Positions 875 through 4,485 of a stretch of DNA of 4,485 nt are shown here, one piece after another. The position numbers and the translations under genes were made by a program. Origin of the DNA: a virus (lineage: Duplodnaviria > Heunggongvirae > Uroviricota > Caudoviricetes); IMG/VR virus record IMGVR_UViG_2565956603_000007; one strand, 5' to 3'. The notes beneath the pieces are model-generated. The model was not told the DNA's origin and did no database searches. It saw nothing but the letters and a program-made list of their open reading frames with translations. The first letter of the stretch is position 1. Every line of letters begins with the position of its first letter.

Positions 875-1555
875 TTACCCCTGCCGCCCGATAACCACGA
901 CCTTTCCGCCCCCGCCTTCATCACGGGTGCTGATGTCCTGGGATATACGGCGGGAGCCAACCAGCATTTCCCCGTAAGGCACCGGCATCGGGTTCCCCTG
1001 GGCAATCATGTTATCCAGCGAGGAAAAGTACGTGTTCTGTCTGCCGTTATCCGTTGCGCGGTAATCCGGTGTTTTTGCCTTCGGGGCCAGCATCTGGGCC
1101 ACACCGCCCAGTATCATGCTGGCCCCCAGTGAAAACAGCATCGTGGTGGCAGAAAAACCGCCGGCACTCAGGGCTGTACCCCATAACGCCATCGAGGCAC
1201 CGGCAGTGAAGAAAGAGCCCACGATGGCTGCCGCCCCCAGCACAATCTGCAGTCCACCCTTTCCGGCCCCGGCCAGTCGCGGCACAATATGGATGACCGT
1301 TCCCTCACCCAGCTGTTCGTGAAGACGGGCGTACACCGCCTCCGGTGCCGTGTCATCACCGGCAATACGTATCTGGTACCAGCCTTCGTTCATCTGACGG
1401 CGAAAGCCCGGCATCTGCATCGACAGGGCGCGAATGGCTTCCGCTGCCGTGTTCACATACAGGCTGAGGCGGCGGCCAAATCGTTGTAAATCCCCGTAAA
1501 GGCGGATGCGTGCCAGTGGCGGTGACGCCAGACTGAATGCGTTCGTCGTTGCCAT
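875..1555 (-). CDS. I: Tail tip assembly protein I (gpI-like), 226 aa
   Basis: ORF-track protein MATTNAFSLASPPLARIRLYGDLQRFGRRL...; recognisable similarity to lambda gpI as I recall it (RICLYGDLQRFGRR, IHIVPR, LGAAAI.GSFFTAGA, NTYFSSLDNM.AQGN). TAA stop at 877..875. Shine-Dalgarno GGGAGAGG upstream of the ATG at 1555. Overlaps the 3' end of K by 103 nt, as in lambda. Confidence 0.92.
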   Translation of the reverse strand: MATTNAFSLASPPLARIRLYGDLQRFGRRLSLYVNTAAEAIRALSMQMPGFRRQMNEGWYQIRIAGDDTAPEAVYARLHEQLGEGTVIHIVPRLAGAGKGGLQIVLGAAAIVGSFFTAGASMALWGTALSAGGFSATTMLFSLGASMILGGVAQMLAPKAKTPDYRATDNGRQNTYFSSLDNMIAQGNPMPVPYGEMLVGSRRISQDISTRDEGGGGKVVVIGRQG

Positions 1556-2196
1556 TTTTCGGAATACCTCTCCCGTTTACTCAGTTGTTCAGGAATATGG
1601 TGCAGCAGCTCGCCGTCACCACAGTAAACGGCGGCATGATTCGGCACCGATGATCCAAAGCAGCACAGCAGCACATCGCCTGCCTGTGCAGAGGACGGAG
1701 ACACCCGGCAAAAGCCGTTTTCCGCCAGGTTGTCCAGGTACAGGTTCTGGCCGTTGCGCCACCAGTCATCCTCGCGATGAAAATCCGGCATCTCAATCCC
1801 CGCCAGATGGTAAGCATCCCGGAACAGCGTGTAACAGTCCGTCACCCCGTGCTCAAAGCGCCGTCCCGTCAGATGTGGCACACAGCGGAATTTGTGAATG
1901 TCACCCCGGCAGACCAGCCACCAGGGCAGTGCGCTTTTTATCTGCAGCCGCCGGTCAGCCTCGCTCAGCCAGGGCAGCCCACCGGGATGACTGTGGACCA
2001 GTGCCACAATCTCCCCCTGCATCTCTGCCCGCAGCCAGTCTTCCGGTGCGATACGAAAATACGCCTCCGGCTCCGCGGAAATATTCACACAAGGGATATA
2101 CCGCTCCCCCTCCGGCGTGCTTATCACGAAGCCGCACGACTCCGCAGGCGCACACCGCCGGGCATGTGCCAGAATCGCTGATTCAGTCTGTGTCAT
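1453..2196 (-). CDS. K: Tail tip assembly protein K (gpK-like), JAB/MPN + NlpC/P60 two-domain protein; proposed 247-aa form starting at ATG 2196
   Basis: In-frame part of ORF 1453..2457 beginning MTQTESAILAHARRCAPAESCGFVISTPEGERY... JAMM-type motif HSHPGGLPWLSEAD (HxHx7Sx2D) at residues 68-81 (plus 1954..1995). NlpC/P60-like Cys in DCYTLF (C121, plus 1834..1836) with downstream His residues (NHAAVY, ELLHH). The ATG at 2196 is 10 nt after the L stop; no strong Shine-Dalgarno, so the start is less certain than the gene call. Confidence 0.85.
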   Translation of the reverse strand: MTQTESAILAHARRCAPAESCGFVISTPEGERYIPCVNISAEPEAYFRIAPEDWLRAEMQGEIVALVHSHPGGLPWLSEADRRLQIKSALPWWLVCRGDIHKFRCVPHLTGRRFEHGVTDCYTLFRDAYHLAGIEMPDFHREDDWWRNGQNLYLDNLAENGFCRVSPSSAQAGDVLLCCFGSSVPNHAAVYCGDGELLHHIPEQLSKRERYSEKWQRRTHSVWRHRHWHASAFTGIYNDLAAASACM

Positions 2197-2206
2197 AAAC
2201 CGGGAT

Positions 2207-2905
2207 TTACTGCGAAAGTTTATTAATGGAAAGGAAACCGCCAAAATTGCCGACATTCCTGCGCAGTTCACACCCGCGCATGCACTTGCTGCATCTGTCC
2301 TTACGGATATCCGTGGTGGGTTTATCGAACTCATCCGCCACAGCCCCGCCCGTGTAACCACACTCATCAGAGCGGTAGGTCCACATACAGGTGTTCGCCA
2401 GCATGATACGACCGGGAAACAGCGCCCCGTCCGTCTCGGTCGGTGTGGCCAGCACAAACGAGGCCGTCATGGCTGTCAGCTGCGACATCTGCTCCACCAC
2501 CCAGCGGTCACTCAGCTCCTGCTCCGGGTCCGCCTCCGGATTGCCCGCAACGAAATTCACCGCATCCAGAAAACGGGCATACACCCGGCGGCGGACCACC
2601 GTGGCCCCCACCAGACTCTGCAGGTCTTCTGCCATCCCGGTGACCAGACCGAACAGATTGGACACCGTCAGTGACGGGCGGGCACTGCTGCCCTTTCCGT
2701 TCATCTCAAAGTCACTGCCGTCAATCGGGTATGCCTGATACTTACGCCCCTGCCAGGTCACCGGCTCCCCTTTTTCATTCAGCTCATTACAGAAAAAATA
2801 CCGCTCACCGCCCTGTACCGTCAGGTCGATTTCCCAGAGTACCACCCGCGGTGACGGCTCTGATTTAACCGACTCGTTCAGACTTTCTTCGTGAATATCC
2901 TGCAT
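2207..2905 (-). CDS. L: Tail tip protein L (gpL-like), 232 aa
   Basis: ORF-track protein MQDIHEESLNESVKSEPSPRVVLWEIDLTVQGGERYFFCNELNEKGEPVTWQGR... ending ...NVGNFGGFLSINKLSQ, matching lambda gpL as I recall it. TAA stop at 2209..2207. Start ATG 2905..2903 overlaps the M stop by 1 nt (TGATG). Confidence 0.93.
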   Translation of the reverse strand: MQDIHEESLNESVKSEPSPRVVLWEIDLTVQGGERYFFCNELNEKGEPVTWQGRKYQAYPIDGSDFEMNGKGSSARPSLTVSNLFGLVTGMAEDLQSLVGATVVRRRVYARFLDAVNFVAGNPEADPEQELSDRWVVEQMSQLTAMTASFVLATPTETDGALFPGRIMLANTCMWTYRSDECGYTGGAVADEFDKPTTDIRKDRCSKCMRGCELRRNVGNFGGFLSINKLSQ

Positions 2906-3234
2906 CAGTTCACCACCTGCTTAAACTCCGCGCTGAACTCAACGCGCAACATCCCGACCCGCGCAGACCACCCGGCACAGGTCACCTTTATCTGCCGGTA
3001 TGCATAGGGTGGCTTCCACAAAAATGCCTTCCAGCCCCCGTGCTCTGCCAGGAACGCTTCCAGATGCCGGGCCTCCTCCCAGGTCACGGAAAGCGTCACC
3101 CTGTATGTTTTCAGGTCAGCATTCAGCCCTGCCGCCATACGCTGTGAGTACCCGTCACCAAAACGCACTTCACGCACCGATGGCTGCGAGTTCACCTCCA
3201 TATCCGGCTTCACTTTCCAGCGAAAGGTTTTCAT
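2905..3234 (-). CDS. M: Tail tip protein M (gpM-like), 109 aa
   Basis: ORF-track protein MKTFRWKVKPDMEVNSQPSVREVRFGDGYSQRMAAGLNADLKTYRVTLSV...RVGMLRVEFSAEFKQVVN, matching lambda gpM as I recall it. Start ATG overlaps the H stop as ATGA (plus 3231..3234 = tcat). Confidence 0.93.
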   Translation of the reverse strand: MKTFRWKVKPDMEVNSQPSVREVRFGDGYSQRMAAGLNADLKTYRVTLSVTWEEARHLEAFLAEHGGWKAFLWKPPYAYRQIKVTCAGWSARVGMLRVEFSAEFKQVVN

Positions 3235-4485
3235 CGACCGCTCCCTGATAACAGACCGCCATCACGCAACTGCAGCCGGAGTTCATCCTGTGCCCCCTTG
3301 CGGGCCATGTCATACACCGCCTTCATCAGCTGCGACCCCGCCTGTCCGTTGATACCGTCGTTCTGAATCACCACGTGATTGTTCTGATTAAAATTAATGC
3401 CTTCGGCCCGCCGCATCTGCGCCGGACTTCCGGCAGCACCCACATACCCCCCTTCCGCATAGCCCCGCATCAGGCGGTACAGGTTCCCGACACCAATCCG
3501 GCTGGTTGCCTCCTTCGTGAAGACAAACTCCCCGCGGTGGACAATCCCCGCTGGCTCATATTTGCCACCGGTTCCCGTAAATCCCCCGGTCGCGAAATGG
3601 AAGTTCGCCGCCGCAGCCTGAATGGCCGTCCCCGTGGAGGCAGACGCACCACCACCGAAAGCACCGCCAATGGCGCTGCCGATACGCCCGACTATCCCCA
3701 CCATCGCCTGCTTCAGAAAAATCTCTGTCAGCATGGACAGCACGGAACGGGTGAAGCTGCGCCAGTTCTGCTCACTGCCGGTCAGCATCGCCGCCATATT
3801 CTGTGCAATACCATCAAAGGTCTGCGTGGCAGCACTTTTAACCTGCGACATACTGTCCGTGGCACTCTCTTTCCACTCGCTCCAGCCGGACCTGAGGCCT
3901 GCCATCCAGTTCCCGCGAAGCAGGTCTTCAGCCGCCCAGGTCTTTTTCTGCTCTGACATGACGTTATTCAGCGCCAGCGGATTATCGCCATACTGTTCCT
4001 TCAGGCGCTGTTCTGTGGCTTCCCGTTCTGCCTGCCGGTCAGTCAGCCCCCGGCTTTTCGCATCAATGGCGGCCCGTTTTGCCCGTTGCTGCTGTGCGAA
4101 TTTATCCGCCTGCTGCGCCAGCGCGTTCAGGCGCTCCTGATACGTAACCTTGTCGCCAAGTGCAGCCAGCTGGCGTTTGTACTCCAGCGTCTCGTCTTTA
4201 TGCGCCAGCAGGGATTTCTCCTGTGCGGACAGCTGGCGACGTTGTGCCGCCTCCTCCAGTACCGCGAACTGACTTTCCGCCTTCCACAAATCCCGGCGCT
4301 GCTGGCTGATTTTCTCATTTGCTCCGGCATGCTTCTCCAACGTCCGGAGTTCAGCCTGAAGCGTCAGCAGGGCAGCATGAGCACTGTCTTCCTGACGATC
4401 GCCCGCAGACACCTTCACGCCGGACTGTTTCGGCTTTTTCAGCGTCGCTTCATAATCCTTTTTCGCCGCCGCCATCAGCGTGTTG
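3231..4485 (-). CDS. H: Tail tape measure protein H (gpH-like), C-terminal portion of at least 414 codons; 5' end lies beyond the window
   Basis: Long minus-strand ORF open to the window edge (track lists it from an internal Met at 4475). Sits immediately upstream of M with ATGA coupling, as lambda H does. Composition is typical of tape measure proteins: Ala/Gln/Arg/Glu-rich helical region followed by a Gly-rich hydrophobic segment (GSAIGGAFGGGASASTGTAIQAAAANFHFATGGFTGTGG). Confidence 0.85.
   Translation of the reverse strand, partial: NTLMAAAKKDYEATLKKPKQSGVKVSAGDRQEDSAHAALLTLQAELRTLEKHAGANEKISQQRRDLWKAESQFAVLEEAAQRRQLSAQEKSLLAHKDETLEYKRQLAALGDKVTYQERLNALAQQADKFAQQQRAKRAAIDAKSRGLTDRQAEREATEQRLKEQYGDNPLALNNVMSEQKKTWAAEDLLRGNWMAGLRSGWSEWKESATDSMSQVKSAATQTFDGIAQNMAAMLTGSEQNWRSFTRSVLSMLTEIFLKQAMVGIVGRIGSAIGGAFGGGASASTGTAIQAAAANFHFATGGFTGTGGKYEPAGIVHRGEFVFTKEATSRIGVGNLYRLMRGYAEGGYVGAAGSPAQMRRAEGINFNQNNHVVIQNDGINGQAGSQLMKAVYDMARKGAQDELRLQLRDGGLLSGSGR

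Follow-up and report, generated by a model that had tools for sequence, protein, structure and literature searches.

The gene for the tail-tip assembly protein K (TAPK) raises the following question in the stretch of DNA analysed here (4,485 nt at its full length, referred to as the window): at which codon does the protein start, and is the 199-aa form annotated for phage lambda a complete protein? A first-pass annotation had given lambda K as 199 aa, starting about 148 nt after the L stop, which agrees with the reference record, where L ends at 14127 and K occupies 14276..14875, leaving a gap of 148 nt. According to the data described below, positions 1453..2196 very probably (probability of about 0.9) encode a complete two-domain K translated from the ATG at 2196, the 199-aa K of lambda being an artefact.

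The minus strand of the window corresponds to part of a lambdoid tail-tip module, in which Pfam matches give the gene order H, M, L, K, I. Of H, the tape-measure gene, the C-terminal part is present (3231..4475, minus), followed by M (2905..3234, minus) and by L (2207..2905, minus; PF05100, E 4e-92), which encodes the minor tail protein L and adjoins K on its upstream side. K itself covers 1453..2196 (minus; 247 aa plus the stop), as defined by its ORF, Pfam and homology, and I (875..1555, minus) encodes the tail assembly protein I, which holds an N-terminal ubiquitin-like domain (PF06805, residues 15-97). A prophage of E. coli CFSAN061770 is 99.8% identical to the window and presents the same gene order, followed by J. 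Two antisense ORFs, 1506..2198 (+) and 1777..2181 (+), show no Pfam match and were rejected as genes. The window gave no matches in an Rfam search and no promoter-like sites were found in it, while its single terminator-like hairpin (2081..2064) was discarded, as its frequency is no higher than in shuffled sequence.

The L stop is a TAA at 2209..2207 (minus), and the ATG of K at 2196..2194 opens a frame of 744 nt, or 247 aa, that runs to a TGA at 1455..1453. It had been claimed earlier that the K frame is open from the L stop and yields 247 aa from the ATG at 2196, and all of these coordinates were verified on the minus strand. Two Pfam domains (E 4e-16 and 3e-13) place this ORF far beyond chance. 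As read from the sequence, the L-K junction (2197..2209, minus) consists of the TAA and a 10-nt spacer devoid of a Shine-Dalgarno sequence, after which comes the K ATG. In the absence of that sequence, initiation at 2196 most likely proceeds by termination-reinitiation, so that the translation of K would likely be coupled to that of L. Such coupling would keep expression low, which suits a catalytic, non-structural factor. The arrangement is general among relatives, since a 247-aa K from an ATG located 4-10 nt past the L stop is found in 86/86 related loci (80 IMG/VR contigs plus phage records, with the reference-type lambda records left out). In these loci the spacer measures 4, 5 or 10 nt and the ATG is kept throughout. 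PGAP also calls a 744-nt CDS, with the same ATG as in the window, in the 99.8%-identical prophage. On this comparative evidence, the ATG at 2196 is very probably the true start of K.

The N-terminal half of the 247-aa protein matches the Prok-JAB profile (PF14464) with 59.2 bits (cut-off 25), residues 3-105 being aligned with profile positions 3-113 of 114. The 199-aa lambda K, in contrast, scores 23.3 bits over profile positions 63-112, under the 25-bit cut-off. The residues E19...H68-S69-H70-x7-S78-E-A-D81 of K agree with the definition of the JAMM motif in PMC300881, E-x(n)-H-[ST]-H-x7-S-x2-D. Taken with the Foldseek matches, the profile and the motif delimit a JAB/MPN+ (JAMM) metalloprotease domain at 1882..2190 (minus), and residues 3-105 are, with the high confidence given to the explanation as a whole, predicted to form a zinc isopeptidase-type domain.

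The contribution of codons 1-48 (2053..2196, minus), which are missing from the 199-aa lambda annotation, is apparent from substitution rates, residue conservation, an AlphaFold2 model and the comparison with PDB 2KKS. In the model (pLDDT 96.6, pTM 0.91), residues 1-48 contribute to the MPN fold its helix 3-15 and the strands 21-27 and 30-36. They also hold a near-invariant P17-x-E19-x-C21-G22 motif, in which E19 is the JAMM glutamate. The first-pass annotation had expected the long form to supply the upstream part of the JAB/MPN fold, including a Glu ahead of the histidine motif, and E19 indeed falls within residues 1-48, before H68-S-H70-x7-S78-x2-D81. It had also anticipated that the short form would leave this motif about 20 residues from the N-terminus; HSHPGG begins at residue 20 of the 199-aa lambda K. 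Under the explanation favoured here, and with the same confidence as the whole of it, the JAB domain needs residues 1-48, which would provide helix 1, strands 1-2 and the predicted catalytic Glu19.

Foldseek searches with the JAB half retrieved PfJAMM1 (5ld9/5lda), Rpn11 and CSN5. The match to PfJAMM1 5ld9, obtained with a predicted structure as the query, has a TM-score of 0.61 normalised to the target over 114 columns. PDB 2KKS aligns with K residues 7-108, and its sequence PnEaCG is paired with PaEsCG of K. The NCBIfam desampylase model gives a weak match, with 30 bits vs a 130-bit cut-off, which fits a JAMM relative that is not an equivalog. PfJAMM1 has also been solved with the ubiquitin-like SAMP2.

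The pattern of change in codons 1-48 is similar to that of the remainder of the gene. Across 76 distinct alleles, dN/dS (Nei-Gojobori) amounts to 0.16 for codons 1-48 and, in the other parts lying outside the overlap, to 0.13 for codons 49-105 and 0.15 for codons 106-213, and variable sites fall mostly in the third codon position (9/7/25). Homologs from Salmonella, Citrobacter and Edwardsiella, 67-81% identical to K, start at most a few residues from MTQTES and hold an invariant A16-P17-x-E19-S-C-G22. Among 38 distant homologs at 32-58% identity, G22, N38, H68, S69, H70 and D81 are invariant, while P17, E19, C21, F47 and S78 are conserved in at least 90% at these identities. E19 is present in 14/14 close and 38/39 distant homologs, and the N-termini of the distant ones lie 10-34 residues ahead of it. 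A HMMER scan yielded 1,827 clusters (50% identity) at E <= 1e-10; among the best 150 of these, the full-length distant clusters measure ~220-280 aa, and their alignments begin at their own N-termini.

Two of the checks proposed along with the original claim were carried out. Pfam on the 247-aa sequence returned Prok-JAB at 3-105 and NlpC/P60 at 111-224, and the comparison of synonymous and non-synonymous change over residues 1-48 across homologs gave the dN/dS of 0.16, together with at least 90% conservation of P17, E19, C21 and G22 down to ~33% identity. As judged from these substitutions, protein-level conservation extends to codons 1-48 as to the other codons of K. The same comparisons support a functional K that is long, with two domains and a start at 2196, the short annotations being truncations of it.

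The second domain of K is an NlpC/P60 (C40) cysteine-peptidase domain (residues 111-224; 1525..1866, minus), recognised by PF00877 and Foldseek. The Pfam match scores 50 bits (cut-off 23) and aligns residues 111-224 with profile positions 1-105 of 105, whereas MepS/Spr and LytE are the Foldseek matches of this half. K shows D120-C121 and N186-H187, as well as a conserved H199. Across the distant homologs H187 and H199 never vary and C121 is kept in at least 90%, and H187 is aligned with the His of QHVAIY in PDB 8auc. From these alignments, C121, H187 and H199 may be proposed as a putative catalytic triad.

If K is a long protein, the 199-aa lambda form requires an explanation, and the first-pass annotation was correct only in part on this point. 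Its statement that the functional K is long and the short annotations are truncated is supported by the domains and the conservation, but the cause in lambda is a missing G and not a mis-chosen start. It had tacitly assumed that the lambda reference is open upstream of the annotated ATG, which does not hold, as codons 1-45 belong to a different frame. In NC_001416/J02459, an ATG 5 nt past the L stop encodes MTQTESAILAHARRCAPAESCGFV..., the same N-terminus as in the window K. This frame diverges after codon 45 and then stops, producing a phantom 76-aa ORF. When the records are aligned, J02459/NC_001416 reads GAGGC^TATTTCCG, vs GAGGCGTATTTCCG in five other genomes: PV340536 (lambda, MG1655 lysogen), KT232076, DE3 (EU078592), lambda imm21 and LC730321. 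The absence of one G after 14266 therefore splits K into the phantom 76-aa ORF and a 199-aa ORF that starts from Met49.

In LC730321, the extra G maps after reference position 14266 when whole genomes are compared. A 138delG is present there too, as is a +C at 20833 that restores stf, which points to an Ur-lambda-like lineage, distinct from lambda PaPa. A +G at 14,266 of lambda is presumably also the variant familiar from variant-calling tutorials. For the MutaMouse lambda-gt10 transgene, the deletion and the extra G appear again, listed as '137 AG>A' and '14266 C>CG' (PMC6760142). The G, and with it a frame for a 247-aa K, is thus found in the five re-sequenced lambda derivatives and in lambda-gt10, whereas OR474059 and OR974322, which may be reference-guided assemblies, share the reference reading. 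Because the reference is an outlier across independent lineages, its reading is taken as an error, and the G missing from the 1982 lambda sequence was in all likelihood lost in sequencing or compilation.

Codon 49 of the window (2050..2052, minus), the site of the annotated Met1 of lambda, reads ATC (Ile). The first-pass annotation had already noted an ATC at 2052..2050, and the reading was verified; initiation is not possible at this codon. Among 87 related CDS, codon 49 is ATC in 51, ATT in 31 and ATG in 5, and residue 49 is Ile in 30/39 distant homologs. The codon being mostly Ile, the family does not conserve an internal start at this position.

Where the Met does occur, gene finders are attracted to it. 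Met49 of lambda-type sequences has a GGAGG 11 nt before it, built from the codons of the conserved Pro43-Glu44-Ala45, while the true start has no Shine-Dalgarno sequence, and this difference accounts for the preference of gene finders for Met49. The same GGAGG-driven preference explains why DE3 and imm21 keep the 199-aa annotation on an intact frame. Ten public contigs encode the exact lambda 199-aa product, and the reference reading GAGGCTAT appears in none of them (0/10): nine read GAGGCGTAT at the site (one of the nine being GAGCCTGAGGCGTAT) and the tenth reads GAGGGTTAT. In two of the ten (L095 and L099), the gene finder chose Met49 on an intact frame, as it also did in L092, a contig with a related 199-aa protein. 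The short calls in six others originate from homopolymer-length assembly errors elsewhere in codons 1-48, and the remaining two, L094 and L097 (masked with N), were left unclassified. It therefore appears, with the confidence attached to the explanation as a whole, that the 199-aa call spreads by annotation transfer combined with the preference of gene finders for Met49.

Other readings of the locus have to be weighed against a single long K. One is that two nested products are made, the 247-aa K and an NlpC/P60-only isoform of 199 aa initiated at codon 49, in the manner of the nested C/Nu3 of lambda. The position of the lambda-type Met49, 11 nt downstream of GGAGG, and its choice by gene finders on the intact frames of L092, L095 and L099 would agree with such an isoform, and so would the TAPK variants with only the NlpC/P60 domain described in some prophages (Iyer et al., PMC1779556). 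In the window, however, this isoform is impossible on account of the ATC. The counts of ATG (5/87 related CDS) and Ile (30/39 distant homologs) at this position argue against it elsewhere, the GGAGG is accounted for by the P43-E44-A45 codons, and a spacing of 11 nt is suboptimal. The other in-frame candidates (GTG24, GTG37, ATG59 and GTG64) fall within conserved secondary-structure elements. A nested isoform is accordingly considered unlikely. If it did exist, phages with Met49 (lambda and the 5/87 CDS) would make two forms of K and those with Ile49 the full-length form alone, and the 199-aa 'K' would exist as a minor product instead of being wholly an artefact.

Somewhat less likely still is that the reference is faithful to the lambda stock sequenced, with a real 1-nt deletion and a K produced by programmed -1 frameshifting or in split form, a reading that concerns lambda only and leaves that of the window unchanged. 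The shift needed is indeed -1, lambda G/GT is made with -1 frameshifting, and OR474059 and OR974322 agree with the reference. The sequence GAG-GCT-ATT, though, contains no slippery heptamer, and the G is present in the Ur-lambda-like LC730321, in the PaPa-derived DE3, in imm21, in gt10 and in K-12 lysogens, which makes the reference an outlier on any tree. The 138delG common to the same re-sequenced genomes points in turn to errors in the old sequence, and 0/10 of the contigs with the 199-aa product reproduce the deletion. The absence of a slippery site and the presence of the G in real genomes led to the rejection of programmed -1 frameshifting for lambda K. As for a start further upstream, the K frame does continue 5' into L as far as 2457 (a 334-aa ORF, 1453..2457), with in-frame ATGs inside L, one of them 20 codons before 2196. 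However, the L-K spacer differs by 5-6 nt among relatives, so this upstream frame is not conserved; homologs from other genera have N-termini that match MTQTES within a few residues; the Pfam JAB profile begins at residue 3; and PGAP uses the equivalent of the ATG at 2196. Such a start is very improbable, the least probable of the readings considered. The 247-aa K initiated at 2196 is thus retained as the preferred reading in what follows.

Compared with known systems, the closest relative is lambda gpK itself (TIPK_LAMBD/P03729, AAA96551) in its corrected 247-aa form, to which the window K is 89% identical (217/245 residues, vs the K of PV340536). Both share the L-K-I-J synteny, the two domains, a start just past the L stop and the overlap with I. 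They differ in that the lambda database entry has 199 aa, in codon 49 (Met in lambda, Ile in the window) and in the L-K spacer (5 nt in lambda, 10 nt in the window). With the TAPK family, K shares the JAB plus NlpC/P60 architecture, the position beside the ubiquitin-like TAPI and TAPJ, and the predicted processing of TAPI at a C-terminal glycine; nothing substantive separates it from this family, of which it is an ordinary member.

The JAMM/MPN+ isopeptidases (PfJAMM1, the HvJAMM1 desampylase, Rpn11, CSN5 and AMSH) have in common with K the fold and the zinc motif E...HxH-x7-S-x2-D, and the archaeal and eukaryotic enzymes of this type act on ubiquitin-like beta-grasp domains. In contrast to them, K carries its JAB domain fused to a C40 peptidase, and its presumed substrate is a linear fusion of a ubiquitin-like domain to a protein (gpI), not an isopeptide conjugate. 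The C40 peptidases MepS/Spr from E. coli and LytE from B. subtilis exhibit the same papain-like fold and conserved Cys-His-His. Unlike them, K lacks a signal peptide and a cell-wall-binding module, and would be cytoplasmic, with a role in assembly and, like lambda gpK, no place in the virion.

The long start and the two-domain reading of K are not new, since RefSeq already holds the exact 247-aa protein (WP_023148772.1, 'C40 family peptidase') and the architecture has been in print since 2006. At least 1,000 contigs carry the lambda K sequence in its corrected form. For the window itself there is little consequence, as RefSeq uses the long start. The explicit diagnosis of the error in the lambda reference is a useful by-product: a literature search for a published correction of lambda K returned only an uncommented variant table (14266 C>CG), and no paper stating the correction was found. 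UniProt TIPK_LAMBD still has 199 aa, and a 2020 review that analysed the '199-residue' gpK found the peptidase domain only. The truncated K of NC_001416/J02459 and UniProt is devoid of the catalytic half of a deubiquitinase-like domain, and has been copied onto re-sequenced genomes with an intact frame, DE3 and lambda imm21 among them. Models, clones or mutants of gpK designed from the reference would lack Glu19, the first helix and two MPN strands.

Regarding function, lambda K is needed for tail assembly and absent from the virion (PMC10721106, PMC12617516, PMC10695390); it was essential for plating in a CRISPRi screen (PMC10695390), and gpK was not detected in lambda virions (PMC10721106). 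Iyer, Burroughs and Aravind (2006) described TAPK as a JAB+NlpC/P60 protein and put forward that it frees TAPI of its ubiquitin-like domain, with the cut at the last glycine of that domain (PMC1779556). [quoted passage not shown]

In the mechanism proposed for the window, K would be translated from the ATG at 2196, 10 nt past the L stop, by reinitiation after L, and the 247-residue product would act as an assembly factor with two predicted peptidase domains. The protein I, its presumed substrate, would dock into the tail tip, after which the JAB domain of K would cut off the N-terminal ubiquitin-like domain of I at the Gly-Gly linker, this being the most likely job of that domain. K itself would stay out of the virion. 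[quoted passage not shown]

The long form of I shares 103 nt with the 3' end of K, read in a different frame. Its ATG is kept in 87/87 loci, and synonymous change is lowered in the K-I overlap. Automatic pipelines call I 33 residues short, dropping the first strand of the ubiquitin-like domain. The window I has a linker ...GAGKGG-LQIV, and in lambda gpI the ubiquitin-like domain ends in G100-G101. In cryo-EM structures, the resolved part of gpI begins at residue 101 (PMC11101478) or at residue 135 (PMC10721106), the first of these starts coming right after G100-G101.

An internal GGAGG is spelled by the conserved K codons Pro43-Glu44-Ala45, 11 nt upstream of codon 49 (window 2053..2079, minus strand; 1180..1203 in L092, a contig encoding a related 199-aa protein). 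The same motif is found in L095 and L099, two of the ten public contigs with the exact lambda 199-aa K call. On the intact frames of these three contigs, gene finders choose the internal Met49 site, which yields 199-aa "NlpC/P60-only" proteins. Proteins of 199 aa also represent several clusters at 90% identity whose members number in the thousands. In six of the ten contigs (L093, L096, L098 and L100-L102, from public E. coli assemblies), comparison of the first 48 codons of K revealed homopolymer-length differences (G5 to G4, C4 to C5 or C3, A3 to A2 or A4, and one small deletion) that disrupt the frame upstream of the 199-aa call. These differences look like long-read assembly errors, not biology.

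Because of the missing G, the lambda reference holds an unannotated phantom ORF of 76 aa (1134..1364 in the reference stretch L001, corresponding to NC_001416 14133..14363), which consists of K residues 1-45 followed by 31 out-of-frame residues. The profile of the PHROG family phrog_7305 ("unknown function") is 76 positions long and matches residues 1-76 of K, and therefore it was probably built from fragments such as this ORF. Among the database proteins matching K, five (P0024, P0026, P0030, P0035 and P0040; 313-431 aa) are L-K or K-I fusions, combining the K domains with PF05100 or PF06805. They could represent frameshifted or mis-assembled junctions, or else natural fusions such as those mentioned by Iyer et al. 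(PMC1779556).

The start-call problem of gene I (875..1555, minus strand) is the mirror image of that of K. PGAP, Prodigal and pharokka-style annotations use a short start, the GTG at 1456..1454, which overlaps the K stop and gives a product of 190-193 aa. The long lambda-style start (ATG at 1555, 226 aa) is kept in all 87 loci, and the 33 codons of I in the K/I overlap (1453..1555, minus strand) are free of stops in these loci. Synonymous divergence is lower in the overlap (0.05-0.06) than elsewhere (0.14-0.23), and the Pfam Lambda_tail_I match starts at residue 15 of the long product. In the short calls, the ubiquitin-like domain would lack its first strand.

This domain of the window I terminates, as ubiquitin does, in a Gly-Gly (residues about 91-99, ...VPRLAGAGKGG; window 1258..1284, minus strand). 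The cryo-EM model of lambda virion gpI begins at residue 101 (PMC11101478), and the equivalent G100-G101 of lambda gpI lies exactly at this first modelled residue. This fits with cleavage by the JAB domain of K.

Lambda_AGU (LC730321) differs from J02459 at other sites. Laboratory lambda carries a known stf frameshift, which would be mended by a +C at reference position 20833 in Lambda_AGU, and this phage would therefore be Ur-lambda-like. Lambda_AGU also shows 138delG, a difference common to lambda-gt10 (PMC6760142), and therefore reference position 138 is probably a second error in the lambda reference.
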